UHGV virus genome: UHGV-0095852
From: a virus
Reading direction: 5' to 3' (one strand)
Length of the DNA: 28,110 nt
In this document: piece after piece, positions 860 through 23,507 of the stretch
How the letters are laid out: the number at the start of each line of letters is the position of its first letter
Position numbering within the stretch: position 1 is the stretch's first letter
The notes under the pieces: generated by a model
The model's database searches: none
What the model was told of the DNA's origin: nothing
The model's input: only the letters and a program-made list of their open reading frames with translations
Position numbers and translations under genes: made by a program

Positions 860-880
860 AAATTAGATTTCTAACATATT
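860..880 (+). promoter_or_regulatory. operator-like motif, copy 2 (AAATTAGATTTCTAACATATT)
   Basis: 20 of 21 identical to copy 3; abuts the stop codon of the 879-2099 gene. Confidence 0.4.
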
Positions 881-2099
881 ATTTCCCATAAAGATCTTCT
901 ACGCCCCCATTCTTCTTGTCCCATTCGTTAGCCCACACCCGGCAGGCATCAATAATTTCTTGACGACGGTCGCCCTGCATAAAGGGGATGCTTTCATGAA
1001 AACTACTTGGGATACAGGCCACGCTGAATACGGTATCAAACGCAGTCTGTTTGATAGCTTCCAACGTCTCTGGGCGCATTTTCAATTCATCGATCGGCGC
1101 ATCCTTAGAGTCCATAATCCGGCGATGCAGGCGCGGGAAATCAGTCTCCAGGTACGCCATAATTTTATCTGCCAGGCATTCGTCTATATCGGTATTCCAG
1201 TCCGTTTCGAAGCCGGGCAGGCGATAGTAAAGCGGCGTTCCCCATACTGATGGGATCACATCCATCGTCAGCAGGCGGTTGGTTCTAATTTGTTGATGGT
1301 AATTAGCCGTCAACAGAGCTTCACCACGCTGACCAGTCTCCGCAACCAGACCATGCGGGTACTCATGGATATAGGCAATAGCATCCACCCCGTCATACAT
1401 GAGCGGGAATGTCTCTGGCCTTTGTCCCATACCACAAGCGCGGTTCAGATCATGACCAAGCTGTGAGCACTCTCGTTTCAGCGTTTCAATAATGTTCTGC
1501 GCTGCTGCTAACTTTTTACGCAGTGTGACGCCTTCGCCTTGATACTTAATGCATTGCTGATTCAGCTCTGTTAAACGCTCTTTTAGTTCCCGACGCTCTC
1601 TTTTCAGCGCACGGTTATCCTTCTCCGCAACATCCAGTCGTTTTGACAGACTGGCTGGATAGTCTTTTTTGTAACGACTCAAATCGGCTTCTGCGGATTT
1701 GCGCAGTGTGTTTGCCTGTTCAAGACGCGCTTCCAGATTGCCGATCTCACTACGCATATTCGCGGCAAATTGATTAACAGCATTGCCAAGACTTTCAACT
1801 GTCGCTGATACGCCTGTGACTTGTGAAAAACGGATCAAGCCATCATTAACGGCTTGTTGATATTCCTCAAACTGATCCACCAGCTTGTTGTAATCAACCG
1901 TCCCTTCCTCAAGTAGCTGGTTGATCTCCGCGACCAGGTTATCAGTAGTGGCAATGACGCTCTCATGTAGCCGTCTGGACAGGTCATCCCCCGGATTCCG
2001 CTTTTGAATAAGGGCGATCTGTGTCCGCAGCGTTTCAATCGCGGCTGAGATGATTTCCAGATTAGAAGTATCAGTTTGTTGACTCATTGCAGTTCCCAT
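879..2099 (-). CDS. hypothetical protein, 406 aa; N-terminal about 230 aa coiled-coil-like (heptad-rich, E/K/R/L/Q rich), uncharacterised C-terminal domain
   Basis: Long uninterrupted ORF; own regulatory motif upstream and bidirectional terminator further upstream; no family recognised by eye. Confidence 0.6.
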   Translation of the reverse strand: MGTAMSQQTDTSNLEIISAAIETLRTQIALIQKRNPGDDLSRRLHESVIATTDNLVAEINQLLEEGTVDYNKLVDQFEEYQQAVNDGLIRFSQVTGVSATVESLGNAVNQFAANMRSEIGNLEARLEQANTLRKSAEADLSRYKKDYPASLSKRLDVAEKDNRALKRERRELKERLTELNQQCIKYQGEGVTLRKKLAAAQNIIETLKRECSQLGHDLNRACGMGQRPETFPLMYDGVDAIAYIHEYPHGLVAETGQRGEALLTANYHQQIRTNRLLTMDVIPSVWGTPLYYRLPGFETDWNTDIDECLADKIMAYLETDFPRLHRRIMDSKDAPIDELKMRPETLEAIKQTAFDTVFSVACIPSSFHESIPFMQGDRRQEIIDACRVWANEWDKKNGGVEDLYGK

Positions 2100-14292: not shown

Positions 14293-15291
14293 TTATGCCC
14301 GTCGCGAAACGAAGAGTAATGGGGTAGTATTTTTGCTATCCTTCGGCGATAACTCCGGCTCTTTCTTGCCTGATATCGGCAAGCCATAAGTCGCATTTGC
14401 CCCCAGAGATTCAAGCATCGCAGCCACTATGCGAGCATCATCTTCAGACTGCATACGGCAGAGCGCCCGACGCTGTTCTGCGCTGATAAAAACAGGCATT
14501 TCCTGGATAGCGTCACGCAAAATCCGACGGCATTGCTTTGCATTTTCCCCCTGGCTTTCCATCATCGCTGTTTGAGCGCGCAGCTTATCTCGAAGCTGTA
14601 TGTTTTCCACTTCAAGGAGCATCAATTCTGATTCCAGGGCTTCACGATGTGCAGATTCGAGCATGGCTTGCTGATTTTTCATTGCTGAAAAGTGGTGAAC
14701 CAGATCCGTAGCAGCGTTATCGGTAAAACCTTGTTCGATAAGTGCTGCATGAATAGCCGCATCGCGCTCTTCTGCTGATTCAAGCATCAGGCTTTTCTTG
14801 TCGAGGCTGATATAGTTAGGCACAGTTACGTAATCAAAGCCGTGGAAAGACTTTACCAGGGATACCGATGAATCTGGACCAGATGTAGCCCACGACCAAC
14901 CACCAGCACCAGAATTAATCATGCCCTGAACAATACGCCCGGTGTCTGTATCCAGTATTTCCTGCGTATGGGTAACAATGCCGTTGTCGTCAATCGAAAT
15001 GTCGATAGTCCTGTTGGATGGCACGTTCTCCAATACAACAGGCTTCCCATCTACCATCACAACAGAGACTTCCGGCAAGTTCAGGCTTTTCGTTTTGTTA
15101 TAGTGCATCGCCCGGCGACCATGACCGTAATAACCATACATCTCACCCAGCGCGATACGCTCTTTTGTTTCTGGCGAGTTGAATGTGTCTCGTACCGACT
15201 GAATGACGTAATTTCGGTTGTTCTGCGGTGTGTGTTTGCGGATTTTCTCTACCAGGGAGAAGCGATCCGTAACAGTATTCAGTGATTGCAT
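14293..15291 (-). CDS. putative prohead protease or scaffold protein (Pro-like)
   Basis: Placed directly after the portal-like gene; His- and Ser-containing N-terminal half and coiled-coil C-terminal half; assignment by context. Confidence 0.5.
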   Translation of the reverse strand: MQSLNTVTDRFSLVEKIRKHTPQNNRNYVIQSVRDTFNSPETKERIALGEMYGYYGHGRRAMHYNKTKSLNLPEVSVVMVDGKPVVLENVPSNRTIDISIDDNGIVTHTQEILDTDTGRIVQGMINSGAGGWSWATSGPDSSVSLVKSFHGFDYVTVPNYISLDKKSLMLESAEERDAAIHAALIEQGFTDNAATDLVHHFSAMKNQQAMLESAHREALESELMLLEVENIQLRDKLRAQTAMMESQGENAKQCRRILRDAIQEMPVFISAEQRRALCRMQSEDDARIVAAMLESLGANATYGLPISGKKEPELSPKDSKNTTPLLFVSRRA

Positions 15292-17106: not shown

Positions 17107-17135
17107 TTGAATATGCACATTGTGCGTATTAAGAT
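17107..17135 (+). promoter_or_regulatory. candidate sigma-70 promoter, -35 TTGAAT and -10 TAAGAT with 17-bp spacer
   Basis: Read directly; located about 35 bp upstream of the GGAG RBS of the 17171 gene. Confidence 0.3.
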
Positions 17136-17170
17136 TGAAAAAGTTGACCACTTTGCTGCGGAGAAATCCC

Positions 17171-17473
17171 ATGAAAAGCTCTTTAATTAATTCCAAATTA
17201 CACCAACTTGCTATCAAAAATCGAGTTCCTGCATGGTCGGTTTACATGCATATCAGCCGCGCATGTCTGAGCAATGAAAACATTTACAATCTGCAAATTC
17301 TAGGCCGGGAAGGAAGGACTTTGTTTAGCGTTGCAGAGGATTCCTATAAGGCCTGGGATATGCTGGATGACGCGTTAAGCCAATACGCGCAAACAGAAGA
17401 ATGCCAAAAAGAATGGGCCAGGTACTGTGATGAAGGGATGCCATGCTGCGGTCTGTTCGGCGCAGCTCTGTGA
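17171..17473 (+). CDS. hypothetical Cys-rich protein, about 100 aa
   Basis: ATG at 17171 with GGAG 8 nt upstream (the ORF track start at 17120 is a TTG without RBS); seven Cys, four of them in the last 25 residues. Confidence 0.5.
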   Translation: MKSSLINSKLHQLAIKNRVPAWSVYMHISRACLSNENIYNLQILGREGRTLFSVAEDSYKAWDMLDDALSQYAQTEECQKEWARYCDEGMPCCGLFGAAL

Positions 17474-17485
17474 ATCGATTCAACG

Positions 17486-17749
17486 ATGATATACTTCGTT
17501 GCGAATCACAGCATTGGCAAAGGGCATAATGTGAAACAACTCCCACCAAACACCCCGGAAACTATAATTGAAATCCGCCAGCGAATGGGGCTAACGCAAA
17601 CGGAGTTGGCCCACAAAATGGGGTATCAACTCCGGGCTTGGCAATTCAAAGAAGATAGAAATAAACCGAGACGCCTTATGGCTGGTGAATTTGAGTACCT
17701 GTTATTGCTTGCTGGAGAGCATCCTGAATTTATTCTTACACCACGCTAA
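17486..17749 (+). CDS. XRE-family helix-turn-helix DNA-binding protein; likely start at GTG 17531
   Basis: HTH signature IRQRMGLTQTELAHKMGY; AAGGG RBS 6 nt before the GTG at 17531. Confidence 0.6.
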   Translation: MIYFVANHSIGKGHNVKQLPPNTPETIIEIRQRMGLTQTELAHKMGYQLRAWQFKEDRNKPRRLMAGEFEYLLLLAGEHPEFILTPR

Positions 17750-17783: not shown

Positions 17784-18077
17784 TCAATTCACATCAATGT
17801 CTTGATATGATTCGCCAGTATCGTCTTCGTCGTCAGGATCTCCTTCCACCTCTGGCCACTCAACCTCCCAGCCAACAGTTTCCAGGCTCCGCAGAACAAA
17901 CACCCCATCGGCATGAATGGTATTCACGATCCCCATTGCGGAATTTGTGTTGATAAAGCGTATATCTTGCGCAATATTTTCTTCCGAAATATCGCCTTCA
18001 AATATACGCAATGTGCCGTCATCAGAGCATTCAACAATCCCTCTAATCCCAGCGGGACTCACAATGCTATACTTCAT
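17784..18077 (-). CDS. hypothetical acidic protein, 97 aa, last gene of the operon
   Basis: ATG with AAGGAG RBS at 7 nt; highly acidic C-terminus. Confidence 0.55.
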   Translation of the reverse strand: MKYSIVSPAGIRGIVECSDDGTLRIFEGDISEENIAQDIRFINTNSAMGIVNTIHADGVFVLRSLETVGWEVEWPEVEGDPDDEDDTGESYQDIDVN

Positions 18078-21000
18078 TTTGCAACTCCTTCATACATCCC
18101 AAGAAAAATTCCAGCACGCCGTCATTGTTTAATACAGAGTTAGTCGCCTGCTCCGGATCGGCATACATCTGCAAGGCCATAGAAAAAATCTCAGTCGCCC
18201 TGCAATTGCTTAATGCAGGTGGCTTTGATATAAATCTGCCGCTGACAGAACTTACCGTATTTTCCATATAAATTTTAGACATATATCCATGACTTAGGTC
18301 GGTTCGCACCAAATACTCAGCACTGCCACGGCTACCAATATTATGATAAGAAACTTTACCGTTAGTTTTTGATTTAATGAAGGCTTTGGCCCTCTCCAAT
18401 AGATGGGGATTTGAATGTTCTATATGGTGACCTATTTCATGCCATAATACACGCTCGTGATCACTATTAGCATCAATTGTTATATTCCCATTTCGACTTG
18501 CAAAAGCACGAACATTGTTCTCGTGGTTAATATTTTTTAATGTAGATAAAGTCCCTCCTGAAATAATATAGGCTTTTTCAATCGTCTCGCGAATACTGTA
18601 TGCTTTACGGGAGAAAGTTTCATTATCGTGACCACTTAACTGCTCTGCTTCATCAGAAATAGCAATCCCACGACTCCATTCCTTAGACTGGTCATGTGAC
18701 ACATTTGACGATTCAAGAATCATGTCAAATGCGGCTCTGACTTTTTTATGTACTACATTTTCAAGCGCATTAGGATAGGCTTTTTGTCCACGTGTTAATG
18801 AAGCTATTTCATATAGTTCTGCTTGCAAGTCTTCCGGTATGTCCAGATTAAAAACAAGCATTTTTTTCAGATCATATCCAATCCCATGATCATTCTGGTG
18901 CAAAACCTCAGCAAGGTAGTCAGTGAGTTTTTCCTTATTTGACCTAACGTTATTGATTTGTTCTATAGTAAAGTCAACACGCTCCTTGATTCCGTAATAT
19001 GAGGAATGCTCTGCTAATTCCACTATCTCCTTAAGCCTGACAAGTGTCTCAATATACGCATCAGCGATCTCCTCTGCCGTTAGTTCAGAGCTAACTCCGA
19101 CACTGGCTGTTATTTTCCTACCAGCCGCCATAATATCGTCGATATTATGCAAGCTCTTTTTGAATAACTTCAAAGTATTTTGGATTATGCGCACCATCTC
19201 TTCTGCGCTTCCAGCTTTATTCATTTCCTTTCTAAATCTTAAAGCTGTTTTCTCTGCAATAGACGCTGGAGATTTTAAATAGTTACCTAACCAAACAAGA
19301 CAACCATTGCGCAATTCATCAATGCTAAAGTCATCAGGAATATGTTTTGCTGCATTATGTAAAACACGTATAAATTGTTCAGCGGGCACGCCTTCTTCTG
19401 ATATGTTGCAAAACGTTTCAATATCACAATCAATATTTCTTTCATCTGCGAGCGAAGGAGCTTCATCTCCTTTTTCAATCGCGTCACGCAGTGCGTTAGC
19501 ATAAAAATTGCTGCGTTGATAAGACAATAACATCGTTGTTAACACAGCGTCGCTGTATCCATAACGTTTAGCCCACTCCTTAATCTCATTAACGGTGACA
19601 TTGCGAATATAAAAACCAAGTTCCAAAAATACATTGCGCTTTATTTTTTTTGCGGACTCCTTAATTTTTTCTGACACCTTCACGATTCGGATCAAGTCCT
19701 CCACGCTGGTCGCATCAGCAATTAGCTTTGAAATGTATGGTTCGACATCTCCTGAAACCGATTCAAACATGGCGAAATTAAGCCCTTTACCTTCGCCATA
19801 CTCAGCCTCAATTTCATCAGAAACGGCAGATAAAATGCTACGCAGATCGACATCTCCGCCGCCGAACATATCGCCTAACGCTTGTTGCTGGTGAATAAGT
19901 TCATCGTTAATTTTTTGCGCCAGTTTCTTGAAAGCTGCCCCCATTCGCTTAGCGCTTCGGTTGTTGGCAACAATAAACAGAGCAAGCGCTTCTGCTTCCG
20001 GAGTGCTATCTCCAAACAATCCACGCTGTGCGATCACCTCTTCTACTGCCTGACCGTTATCTTTTGCTTCACGAACAAGGTTAATTGCTTCCTGTAGCGC
20101 GGCAATAGCCTGTTTATCCAGACTATTCAATTGCTCTATACCGTCTACCAGTCCGGTTACCGTGTCATGGTGAACATCACCTGAAAGCGACTGCATTTGC
20201 GCAAAATCGCTGGCTGCCGTATTTAATGCGGTAAGGATGTTACGCATTTCCGGATCTGGCTCTTCCGCCACCAGCCGAACAAGCCTTTCATCCTTGTACG
20301 CTTTGGCAAAAATTGCATTCTGGATGCGGTCGATAAGTTGTTTCGTTGGACGCCCATCGGCAGTAAGCAAACCTGCCGTCGCCGTATCACCTATTTCGCG
20401 CAAAAACGCACGAATAAACGCATCATTGGACCGCGCCAGTAGATTTCCATCATCTGAAGGATTAAATAGCGCCATGACGCTCTCAGTGAGAAATTGCGCA
20501 TCCGCATACGCTTTTTCACTTGCAGCCATCTCTTGCAGATCGCTGATGTTTGAATCGCGGGCAAATTGTGCGCGGTCTACATCTGTGAGTCTTTCTCGCA
20601 CCAGTACGGGCATAGACATTTGTGAAATGTCGTCAGGATTCAGACCAAACTCTTTTGCATGATCGATCAGGTACTGGCGATATTCATCCGCCTGCCCTTG
20701 CTCATAGGCACGCCAGATACCCATGCTCCTTCCGTTGCCGGATTCAACAACGTTGTCCGGACCAACTATCGGCGCTCCGTGGCTGCTCATGCCGGAATCC
20801 GTTAATTGTGCCGGGCGTAAATTGGAGGCAATACGGTTAACCTGGAGTTTGCTGGATAGCCGTGTACGGTCACGTGGCTGGAGTTCTTCCGGGAAGGCCG
20901 GATTAATCGTACCGTCAAGGTTGTTCGAAATGATCAGACTGCTGGCATCAACGACCTTAAAAGCCGTCTTTACCTCTGCCCCTTTACTGGTGACTACGTA

Positions 21001-21108
21001 ACTACTGCGCCCCTGGCGTGTTTCTCGCCTCTCTAATGAAGAAACCAGCTCAATAACACTGTTAATGTCTGCTGCTTCGGATAGCGCGGAAGTAACTGAC
21101 TTGTTCAA
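18067..21108 (-). CDS. DdrB-like large internal head protein (by synteny) with a C-terminal HExxH motif
   Basis: 1013-aa ORF, TTG start with AAGGGGAG RBS; HEIGH encoded at 18427-18441. Confidence 0.75.
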   Translation of the reverse strand: MNKSVTSALSEAADINSVIELVSSLERRETRQGRSSYVVTSKGAEVKTAFKVVDASSLIISNNLDGTINPAFPEELQPRDRTRLSSKLQVNRIASNLRPAQLTDSGMSSHGAPIVGPDNVVESGNGRSMGIWRAYEQGQADEYRQYLIDHAKEFGLNPDDISQMSMPVLVRERLTDVDRAQFARDSNISDLQEMAASEKAYADAQFLTESVMALFNPSDDGNLLARSNDAFIRAFLREIGDTATAGLLTADGRPTKQLIDRIQNAIFAKAYKDERLVRLVAEEPDPEMRNILTALNTAASDFAQMQSLSGDVHHDTVTGLVDGIEQLNSLDKQAIAALQEAINLVREAKDNGQAVEEVIAQRGLFGDSTPEAEALALFIVANNRSAKRMGAAFKKLAQKINDELIHQQQALGDMFGGGDVDLRSILSAVSDEIEAEYGEGKGLNFAMFESVSGDVEPYISKLIADATSVEDLIRIVKVSEKIKESAKKIKRNVFLELGFYIRNVTVNEIKEWAKRYGYSDAVLTTMLLSYQRSNFYANALRDAIEKGDEAPSLADERNIDCDIETFCNISEEGVPAEQFIRVLHNAAKHIPDDFSIDELRNGCLVWLGNYLKSPASIAEKTALRFRKEMNKAGSAEEMVRIIQNTLKLFKKSLHNIDDIMAAGRKITASVGVSSELTAEEIADAYIETLVRLKEIVELAEHSSYYGIKERVDFTIEQINNVRSNKEKLTDYLAEVLHQNDHGIGYDLKKMLVFNLDIPEDLQAELYEIASLTRGQKAYPNALENVVHKKVRAAFDMILESSNVSHDQSKEWSRGIAISDEAEQLSGHDNETFSRKAYSIRETIEKAYIISGGTLSTLKNINHENNVRAFASRNGNITIDANSDHERVLWHEIGHHIEHSNPHLLERAKAFIKSKTNGKVSYHNIGSRGSAEYLVRTDLSHGYMSKIYMENTVSSVSGRFISKPPALSNCRATEIFSMALQMYADPEQATNSVLNNDGVLEFFLGCMKELQNEV

Positions 21109-21177
21109 AATACACTCCCCTTACATAGAAAGCAGGAAGTGTAAAAAGTGTGTGATTTATGGACTTACAGGAAAGTG

Positions 21178-21570: not shown

Positions 21571-23507
21571 TAAGCACCTCCCTGCTGAATTTCAGCCAGA
21601 ATGTTGATCAGGTAGTCAACTGCTGCGCCAACCGTTGATTCGTTCTCGTCGTATCGACCAGCACTGATAAGAGCGTTTGCAGCTTCCTGCACATGGTCAA
21701 GTTCGGCACTGATTACCGTCAGATCGCGAGATGTAAACTGCACCGGGACGGATTTAAGGTACTCCAACGCTTTATCTGCTTCCTGATCAGCTTCAGTTGC
21801 CGCTTCTTCAGCGTCTTCCGGCGTTGGCTGTTGCTCTGGTGCTGTTTGTGGGTGTGATTCTGGCTCAACTACAGGTGCTAATTCAGGCTCTGGCGTTACT
21901 TCGTTTGAATGATTTTGAAGGGCGTTATATACGTCCATAATGAAAAGGTTCTCCCCATCACCAAGTGGATACGCCACGTTTGGAAACGCTTTGCGGAAAA
22001 GAATTTTCACTTGCGCCTTGAATGTTTTCAGGTCACTGCCAAACAGGTCTACATAGCCATCAATATGTTTCGACATGCTGGACACAACCAATTGGCCTGC
22101 AAAATCTTTCAGCTCATCTTCATCAGGAAGATAGAGCAACTCGTACTGGCTGACTTCTTCATCTGTCAGTTTACGGTCATACGTAATGATACCGTGACGA
22201 GCATATTCGTAATACTGATCAGCCTGGTCAGGACGATCAAGCACGGCTTTATTTCCATCCGGCACAGCACCAACACCAGCCGGGCGAGATTGAAGTGCAT
22301 AGTGGTATTTACCTACATCCTGGCTCTCTGGTTGTGATACTGGGTTCGTCTCGGGGTCTGTCTGTGGTGGTTCGGGGTCTTCCTGCTGGCCTGGTAACAC
22401 ATCAACTTTATATTTATCTGCGTTATGCTCTCGGTAGGCTTTAAGTAATTTGGTTGCAGCATCTGCCAAACTGCCTCCTTTGACAGCACTGGCATCAATA
22501 CTGAATTTACCTTCAGGTGCTACTATCGTAACGAAATTGTCACTGCCGGACGTGACATAATTAACTTCAGCGCCATTATCCAGCACTGTTTTTCCGTCAA
22601 TGGCAAGATTATGTTTTACATGTCGCAGCTGGTCGCTAAACGCTCGTTCTTTCGTTTTTTCACCTTTAGCAGACAACAATTTATCGCGTTTTGCTTGTAA
22701 TTCCTCGTTGATGGCTTTCTGGGCATCAAGTTTTTTTTGCATCTCCGTAAGAGCAGCACGCTTTTCAGTCAGCCCACGTTGCGCAACTTCCACCTGATCA
22801 ATCATTATTGACCGTTCTTCTGCCAGTTTATCTGCTTCATTGAGATAACTCTCAATATCTGCCTTCATTTTGTCCTGGCGCTCTTTTGCTTTCTTAAATT
22901 TTTCGCTGTTACGCTCAATCAAATTAGATAGCGCCTGGCATACCTGGCTTAAAGAAACATCTCTCCCACCAATCGGGGCGACAACGTGAGTTACGTTACG
23001 CTTATTAAGTAAAAACTGAAATGCAACAAGCTCGTCGTTACTCTTTATTTTTGCCCCGTCAGCTGTTGGAGAGTGGAAAATTATGCTTGTACTCTGCCCG
23101 TCAGTAAGCGGTATCTGCGCGGTCAAAACAGGGATATTAGCTACCCGACGTACACGACCGATAATCGCACCACCAATACAATTACGTCCATTTTCATCGG
23201 TCCCAGCTTCATCAGTCCCTGCCATAATATTCGTACCATTCAGGCCACGATTCAGCGCACGGACGAAAGCTCGCATTGTTTGAGCTAACCGAATTCTGGT
23301 TGTAGTTATGGACTCAAACATAGCTTCGTCAGACACAACCAGAATTTCATTGCCCATATAGGCAAGCTCAATATCTTCTAAGGTCGCCGCCTCAAAAATC
23401 AGGTCATCTTCGCTTAATTCTTCTGAAGACCAGCGACTTGGCATATAGCCGGGGATCGTATCAGCAAAAGTAGACTGAATATTAATTCGTAAAGGATTGT
23501 TAATCAT
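21570..23507 (-). CDS. darA: DarA-like internal head / antirestriction protein
   Basis: About 645 aa with a central coiled coil; start reassigned to ATG 23507 (GGAGG 6 nt upstream, overlaps upstream stop); size and position match the P1 darA operon as recalled. Confidence 0.75.
   Translation of the reverse strand: MINNPLRINIQSTFADTIPGYMPSRWSSEELSEDDLIFEAATLEDIELAYMGNEILVVSDEAMFESITTTRIRLAQTMRAFVRALNRGLNGTNIMAGTDEAGTDENGRNCIGGAIIGRVRRVANIPVLTAQIPLTDGQSTSIIFHSPTADGAKIKSNDELVAFQFLLNKRNVTHVVAPIGGRDVSLSQVCQALSNLIERNSEKFKKAKERQDKMKADIESYLNEADKLAEERSIMIDQVEVAQRGLTEKRAALTEMQKKLDAQKAINEELQAKRDKLLSAKGEKTKERAFSDQLRHVKHNLAIDGKTVLDNGAEVNYVTSGSDNFVTIVAPEGKFSIDASAVKGGSLADAATKLLKAYREHNADKYKVDVLPGQQEDPEPPQTDPETNPVSQPESQDVGKYHYALQSRPAGVGAVPDGNKAVLDRPDQADQYYEYARHGIITYDRKLTDEEVSQYELLYLPDEDELKDFAGQLVVSSMSKHIDGYVDLFGSDLKTFKAQVKILFRKAFPNVAYPLGDGENLFIMDVYNALQNHSNEVTPEPELAPVVEPESHPQTAPEQQPTPEDAEEAATEADQEADKALEYLKSVPVQFTSRDLTVISAELDHVQEAANALISAGRYDENESTVGAAVDYLINILAEIQQGGA

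Follow-up and report, generated by a model that had tools for sequence, protein, structure and literature searches.

A ddrB orthologue in the darA operon

We analysed the virus genome UHGV-0095852, a stretch of 28,110 nucleotides (hereafter the window), whose minus strand carries a gene similar to ddrB of phage P1. The encoded protein contains an HExxH motif, H890-E891-I-G-H894, close to its C-terminus (Table 1), and a first-pass annotation of the DNA had proposed that this motif might endow a packaged protein with peptidase activity. We here conclude that the motif likely marks the active site of a zinc metallopeptidase (MPTase) domain of gluzincin type at the C-terminus of a P1 DdrB orthologue, which is encoded in the darA operon of a D6-like phage-plasmid and has the predicted catalytic site and action described below. 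This conclusion is carried by the orthology, an architecture of three modules, near-invariant catalytic residues and a predicted zincin core fold.

The orthology is evident over the full length of the protein, which shares 45% identity with P1 DdrB and 47% with gene_116 of Cronobacter phage JK004. In addition, the protein matches phrog_2299 from end to end (residues 9-1012, E=0), and its TTG start at 21108 is the ddrB start annotated in phage D6. The gene order hdf-darA-ddrA-ddrB-hxr is common to this locus and P1, and the annotations of D6 and P1 agree. Homologues of Hdf, DarA and DdrA lie upstream of ddrB, which corresponds to the position of ddrB in the darA operon (lydA-lydB-hdf-darA-ddrA-ddrB-hxr). 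With Pfam, we detected DarA_N and DarA_C in an open reading frame (ORF) of 658 amino acids (aa) and DarA_N in an ORF of 211 aa. The overlap between ddrB and the hxr-like gene is 11 nt long here as in P1, and its presence in both phages suggests translational coupling. Further on, 3' of the hxr-like gene, follow the genes of the portal protein and of the prohead protease Pro. The DNA is 100% identical to the E. coli plasmid NZ_CP135715.1, a D6-like phage-plasmid.

Table 1. Features of the ddrB locus, with positions in the window
Feature	Position	Strand	Residues and remarks
ddrB-like gene	18067..21108	-	1013 aa, TTG start; full-length P1 DdrB orthologue
Shine-Dalgarno sequence AAGGGGAG	21115..21122	-	strong, as read from the sequence; 6-nt spacer to the TTG start
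Conserved N-terminal module	19759..21108	-	aa 1-450; ParB and helical region; sole part present in D6-type short alleles
ddrB-ParB domain	20590..20985	-	aa 42-173; Pfam PF18763, E=9.9e-42, 142 bits (cut-off 27.6)
Candidate Pro site A446-M-F-E449/S450-V451	19756..19773	-	in the disordered linker aa 440-453; predicted cut between E449 and S450
Hypervariable all-helical middle domain	18781..19758	-	aa 451-776
C-terminal zincin-type MPTase domain	18070..18780	-	aa 777-1013
R867	18508..18510	-	conserved R-A-x-A strand before the HExxH helix; adjoins core-sheet strand 869-871
H890-E891-I-G-H894	18427..18441	-	CAT GAA ATA GGT CAC; helix 885-899; H890 and H894 predicted ligands, E891 predicted general base
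E897 (HExxHxxE)	18418..18420	-	invariant acidic residue, 3 positions past the second His; putative role in the pocket
E931	18316..18318	-	acidic and near-invariant; lies in the insert that separates the two catalytic helices
Y942...Y947	18268..18285	-	conserved Tyr upstream of the glutamate helix; candidate transition-state-stabilising Tyr of gluzincins
E973-I-F-S976	18181..18192	-	predicted glutamate-helix motif; helix 974-983 begins right after E973
hxr-like ORF	17784..18077	-	97 aa; 43% identity to P1 Hxr, E=1e-16; 11-nt overlap with the ddrB stop
Prohead protease Pro	14293..15291	-	enzyme separate from the HExxH domain
(A)(M/L)(L/F)E-(S/A) motif in pro, three sites	14776..14787, 14653..14664, 14407..14418	-	
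AMFE-S motif in darA	23310..23321	-	aligned with the DarA N-terminal processing position

The C-terminal metallopeptidase domain

The HEIGH codons (18441..18427; minus-strand context ...tggc atgaaataggtcac..., protein context HERVLWHEIGHHIEHSNPHLLERAKAFIKS) had been read correctly in the first-pass annotation, and so had their distance from the C-terminus, which was given as about 124 residues (123 residues follow H890). By itself, the bare HExxH motif is weak evidence and not significant: 0.044 occurrences are expected from the composition of the protein, and among 20,000 shuffles of the 1013-aa protein it turns up in 4.5%, compared to 0.015% for the extended form HExGHxxE. We thus judge the motif to be genuine because of its conservation and not because of its occurrence.

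To estimate this conservation, we drew on the best 150 representatives of 50%-identity clusters, which provided 147 copies of the domain. We observed that H890, H894, E897, Y942 and E973 are conserved in 100% of these copies, E891 in 99% (the catalytic Glu is missing in one of the 147), R867 in 98%, E931 and S976 in 97% and Y947 in 96%. Eleven positions are invariant across 30 non-redundant domains (R867, A870, H890, E891, G893, H894, E897, E931, Y942, E973 and S976), and the conservation of HExxH, alongside eight other positions, persists down to ~20% identity. Furthermore, the 70 homologues that bear HExGH, chiefly long DdrB proteins (~900 aa or more), each have exactly one such motif, located ~105-135 residues from the C-terminus. 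The shuffles and a second, probably fortuitous HExxH in the window (1353..1367, minus strand) might speak for a chance motif without functional meaning, but this explanation is refuted by the conservation of 99-100% in 147 domains and by the location of the motif on a helix of a zincin core fold, so that its probability is practically nil. The second motif (IHEYPH) is located in an ORF of 406 aa (879..2099) that has sub-threshold Pfam matches only, to families of helical or coiled-coil type, and is most likely a chance occurrence.

The structure of the domain was predicted with AlphaFold2 from the alignment of 30 domains, with high confidence (predicted local distance difference test, pLDDT, 96.2; predicted template modelling score, pTM, 0.92). 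In the model, a helix and three strands precede the HExxH helix, and a variable beta-rich insert leads from there to a helix that starts just after E973. The predicted HExxH helix comprises residues 885-899 (109-123 in the numbering of the domain model, pLDDT 96-98), and N-terminal to it lie a helix (63-73) and a three-stranded sheet (83-86, 93-95 and 99-102, same numbering). A helix, a three-stranded sheet and an HExxH helix are the elements by which the MPTase core has been defined (Iyer et al. 2017, PMC5512222), and the model of residues 777-1013 has this zincin core. Of the two points on which the first-pass annotation had staked the motif, its conservation in P1 DdrB and relatives was borne out, and the predicted C-terminal fold would be compatible with a metal site. 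The predicted model resembles solved zincin structures, yet a Foldseek search against the Protein Data Bank (PDB) returned nothing significant.

For the third metal ligand, our analysis points to a different residue than previously suggested. The glutamate 15 residues downstream of the motif that had been named for this role exists (E905, GAG, 18394..18396); it is, however, not conserved outside close relatives. We consider E973 as most likely the third ligand, because the invariant E973-x-x-S976 starts a later helix and fits the glutamate-helix motif of gluzincins, (E,H)xx(A,F,T,S,G) (ArdC paper); this fit concerns only the sequence and the predicted secondary structure. E897 parallels the Asp that occurs three residues after HEXXH in one phage-type MPTase clade (Iyer et al. 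2017, PMC5512222). By analogy to gluzincins, Y942 or Y947 may be the tyrosine that stabilises the transition state; in ArdC, the conserved Y255 has been proposed to stabilise the bound substrate chain (ArdC paper). In the catalytic site that we propose, H890, H894 and E973 would bind the metal, E891 would activate the water, Y942 or Y947 would stabilise the transition state, and E897, E931 and R867 would line the pocket. Overall, it is very likely that this is a genuine and probably active zincin domain, and an orthologue of the domain known from P1 DdrB.

The first-pass annotation assumed that such a motif had not been described for P1 DdrB; this was wrong, as several descriptions exist. The RefSeq/GenBank record of P1 notes for ddrB 'unknown protein function; possible metallopeptidase', and ddrB of phage JL22 is annotated as 'putative metallopeptidase'. 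Lenart et al. 2013, citing Lobocka 2004, count the DdrB family among the suspected zincins that still await a formal description. Lastly, the C-terminal MPTase of P1 DdrB was described by Iyer et al. 2017 (PMC5512222), where autoprocessing to a 76-kDa form was proposed. The finding of the HEIGH motif and its peptidase domain is thus confirmed here but was already known (2004, 2013, 2017).

When comparing the protein to P1 DdrB (P1_gp022, YP_006491.1), we find the orthologous operon position, the 11-nt hxr overlap, the N-terminal ddrB-ParB domain and the layout of three modules in both, and the stretches WHExGHHxExSNPxLLE and TExFSMALQ are conserved between the two. The peptidase domains share 38-40% identity, whereas the middle 326 residues share only 17-19%. 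The same core and a later Glu helix are found in MPTases of polyvalent proteins, such as the C-terminal domain of ArdC and the HExxH region of the N4 virion RNA polymerase (vRNAP) (Iyer et al. 2017). These domains, likewise, reside within proteins that enter the recipient cell along with the DNA.

Among the gluzincins, anthrax lethal factor and Pro-Pro endopeptidase (PPEP) belong to MEROPS family M34 and MtfA to M90. The domain analysed here has 10-15% identity to lethal factor, PPEP and MtfA, without a significant sequence or profile match and without a Foldseek match; aligning the family profile to E. coli MtfA with hhalign gave a non-significant E=0.19 that covers the HExxH region only. Furthermore, the spacing from Tyr to Glu differs, the beta-rich insert is variable, and R867, E897 and E931 are additional invariant residues. 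The likeness to these enzymes is thus one of mechanism and not of family membership.

At a threshold of E<=1e-3, the profile of the 30-domain alignment detected at least 6,095 representatives of 50%-identity clusters, and at E<=1e-30 it detected 407. The DdrB N-terminal module accompanies the peptidase domain in only 11 of 135 new representatives; others are proteins of ~620 aa, MuF fusions and a fusion with Mu-portal and InPase, and nine of the 135 have the domain in multiple copies. No Pfam family matched the C-terminal 237 aa of this protein or of P1 DdrB at E<=10, the Pfam scan of the full 1013-aa protein found nothing in the C-terminal region at E<=1, and the NCBIfam search of the domain gave no usable match. 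In PHROGs, the domain matches families of 'unknown function' and, weakly, 'minor head protein'. Among all PDB sequences, a profile search found nothing significant (best E=0.12, to an unrelated protein), and Foldseek against BFVD retrieved only four uncharacterised phage proteins. The DdrB-type peptidase domain is thus a large family without a Pfam or NCBIfam model.

A facultative C-terminal module and a candidate protease site in the linker

The three modules of the protein differ in their conservation. Residues 42-450 are 51-95% identical to 12 homologues and the peptidase domain is 22-59% identical to its homologues, whereas residues 451-776 have 8-41% identity to homologues with conserved flanks. 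The homologue alignment contains no invariant column between residues 449 and 852. Residues 457-772 are nevertheless predicted as confident helices (pLDDT mostly 75-96).

The backbone of the window is D6-like, in contrast to P1, and most D6-like relatives carry a ddrB allele of 453-454 aa without the peptidase domain. The first 1346 nt of ddrB are 95.5% identical to ddrB of phage D6 (454 aa), and phage D6 showed no trace of the C-terminal half when we searched for it. We found such a short allele in phage D6 and in the two D6-type plasmids examined, out of ~35 records that share the D6-type N-terminus at >=90% identity; the long allele is present in only 4 of 118 matching plasmids of PLSDB (megablast level). 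The C-terminal 564 residues of ddrB (18067..19760, minus strand) together with the hxr-like gene form a facultative module in D6-like phage-plasmids (compared to phage D6 10346..11425). In D6 and pLD93-1, a DUF4145/HEPN-like gene follows the short ddrB.

Hxr is annotated in the P1 record as 'possible repressor; homolog of Xre'. This repressor label appears doubtful, since neither the 97-aa ORF nor P1 Hxr matches any helix-turn-helix family in Pfam. Two small ORFs of 87 and 117 aa are located on the plus strand between the hxr-like and portal genes (17120..17749). The 87-aa ORF has a weak match to HTH_3 (E=0.005), and the identical plasmid has a shorter ORF annotated at this place, which is assigned to the XRE family. 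Both small ORFs are missing from D6, and the position thus appears to be a variable cargo spot.

Between the N-terminal module and the hypervariable domain, residues 440-453 have a pLDDT below 50 and form the only long (14 residues) internal segment of this kind at a domain boundary in the full-length model. Of 30 homologues, 28 retain the motif AMFE-S of this linker, whereas the remaining two carry D instead of E. The linker sequence AMFE-SV is nearly identical to the AMLE-SV of the P1 major capsid protein gp23, whose maturation site has been mapped to KAMLE120-S121V (Gonzales et al. 2022, PMC9024508). At the position aligned with the AMFE-S of DarA in the window, P1 DarA has LLE68-A69; Pro removes ~9 kDa from P1 DarA, of which the cryo-EM map does not show residues 1-69. 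Pro itself contains the motif three times in the window and four times in P1. Of the eight [ML][LF]E[SA] motifs in the P1 proteome, seven are found in Pro, DdrB, DarA or gp23, proteins that make up ~10% of the residues. Furthermore, the D6-type short alleles end 4-6 codons past the AMFE-S site.

Judged from these sequences, (A)(M/L)(L/F)E-(S/A) seems to be what prohead proteases of the P1 family recognise; we did not find a published description of it as a consensus in the literature searched. Because the linker motif matches the sites of gp23 and DarA, is conserved and is of a type concentrated in Pro, DdrB, DarA and gp23, we infer that Pro rather than the metallopeptidase splits the two halves, and the balance tips slightly towards Pro cutting the DdrB linker. 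P1 Pro is relevant here as an alternative agent of DdrB processing and not as a relative of the HExxH domain.

Possible roles of the peptidase

P1 DdrB is present in virions and has been described as aiding the incorporation of DarB. Mass spectrometry of P1 virions identified DdrB with 39 unique peptides and a coverage of 59.5%; the supplement of that proteome paper holds no DdrB peptide map. The two halves that a cut in the linker would yield comprise ~44% and ~56% of the length. As the coverage exceeds either half alone, both halves are probably retained in the virion, and the peptidase is therefore probably ejected into the host. The earlier proposal of a packaged peptidase is supported in part, in that the motif belongs to a conserved and confidently folded zincin-type domain and P1 virions contain the orthologous protein, whereas E905 as a ligand and the belief that the P1 domain had gone undescribed do not hold.

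In the mechanism that we propose, full-length DdrB would enter the prohead with the other Dar proteins. There, the halves would be separated at E449/S450, with Pro as the more probable cutter than the metallopeptidase, and both would stay in the virion. The C-terminal half, consisting of the hypervariable helical domain and the peptidase, would be ejected with the DNA and would cleave a substrate in trans, possibly one of the other Dar proteins or a protein of host defence. We put forward this action on a separate substrate after ejection, as opposed to self-processing, only tentatively, as it is possible but doubtful. The most specific form of this proposal assumes that self-processing does not occur and that Pro splits DdrB. 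The C-terminal half would then be an ejected effector, in which a rapidly diversifying helical recognition domain is fused to a zinc endopeptidase like lethal factor and PPEP; its target would be a component of host defence, e.g. a subunit of a type I restriction enzyme, or something else that is met early. Taken as a whole, this form is unlikely to be correct.

Several observations weigh against our proposal. In the literature searched, we found no biochemistry that shows a DdrB to bind metal or to cleave proteins. ArdC, which is the best-studied antirestriction protein with an MPTase domain, does not need its peptidase for this function (ArdC paper). Phage D6 and the D6-type plasmids with short alleles have no peptidase module, and ddrB is reported in the literature as non-essential in P1; the peptidase domain is thus dispensable for growth. 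Lastly, P1 DdrB is reportedly processed to a form of ~76 kDa, a size taken second-hand from Iyer et al. 2017 (PMC5512222), and neither of the fragments predicted from a cut in the linker (~48 and ~61 kDa) fits this size. The conserved N-terminal module contains other low-confidence loops (residues 312-328 and 415-417; region 19759..20172, minus strand). A cut near residues 312-328 would yield a C-terminal product of ~74-76 kDa, which is near the size in the literature; we recognised no protease motif in this loop.

The ~76-kDa form is also the basis on which autoproteolysis was proposed (Iyer et al. 2017, PMC5512222): the C-terminal MPTase would cut its own polypeptide before or after packaging, which would free a ParB-type effector, and would have no other substrate. 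This model fits the finding that very long polyvalent proteins contain two to four relatives of the domain, and that relatives also adjoin MuF or portal modules, as in the cutting of a polyprotein. Furthermore, the loss of the whole C-terminal half is tolerated in D6-type alleles, as would be expected if the peptidase only removes itself. However, the interdomain linker bears the probable recognition motif of another protease, Pro, and the model of the protein has no flexible segment near residue 700, where an N-terminal product of 76 kDa would end. The mass-spectrometry coverage indicates that both halves are kept in virions, and a conserved extended pocket (R867, E897, E931, Y942 and Y947) beside a hypervariable domain would not be needed for a single intramolecular cut. 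We thus regard self-processing as somewhat unlikely.

Alternatively, the domain might act in trans during assembly, by processing another Dar component such as DarB or Ulx in the cell or the prohead. The requirement of DdrB for the incorporation of DarB would thereby be explained, and the idea is consistent with the order of incorporation in P1 (DdrA, DdrB, DarB, Ulx). Yet processing of DarB or Ulx is not reported in the literature searched, D6 encodes a DarB homologue (darB-like orf15) together with a short DdrB that lacks the peptidase, and the help with incorporation could equally stem from the N-terminal module. A peptidase acting at the assembly stage is thus quite improbable. Still more remote is a zincin-like fold without proteolysis, which would make the domain a hydroxylase of HExxH type, a metal-dependent nuclease as YbeY, or a module that retains a metal site but serves purely for structure or capsid targeting; we consider this very improbable.

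The Dar proteins of P1-like phages are packaged into the head and injected with the DNA, where they act against type I restriction. Concrete enzymatic leads on the Dar mechanism are few, and a predicted active zinc peptidase that enters along with the DNA is among them. To this lead, our analysis adds a list of residues for mutagenesis (H890, E891, H894, E897, E931, Y942 and E973) and the size of an unannotated family. Furthermore, the Pro-type motif in the DdrB linker is new and offers an alternative to the autoproteolysis model. If the ejected C-terminal half indeed cleaves a component of host defence, DdrB would be a virion-delivered anti-defence protease.

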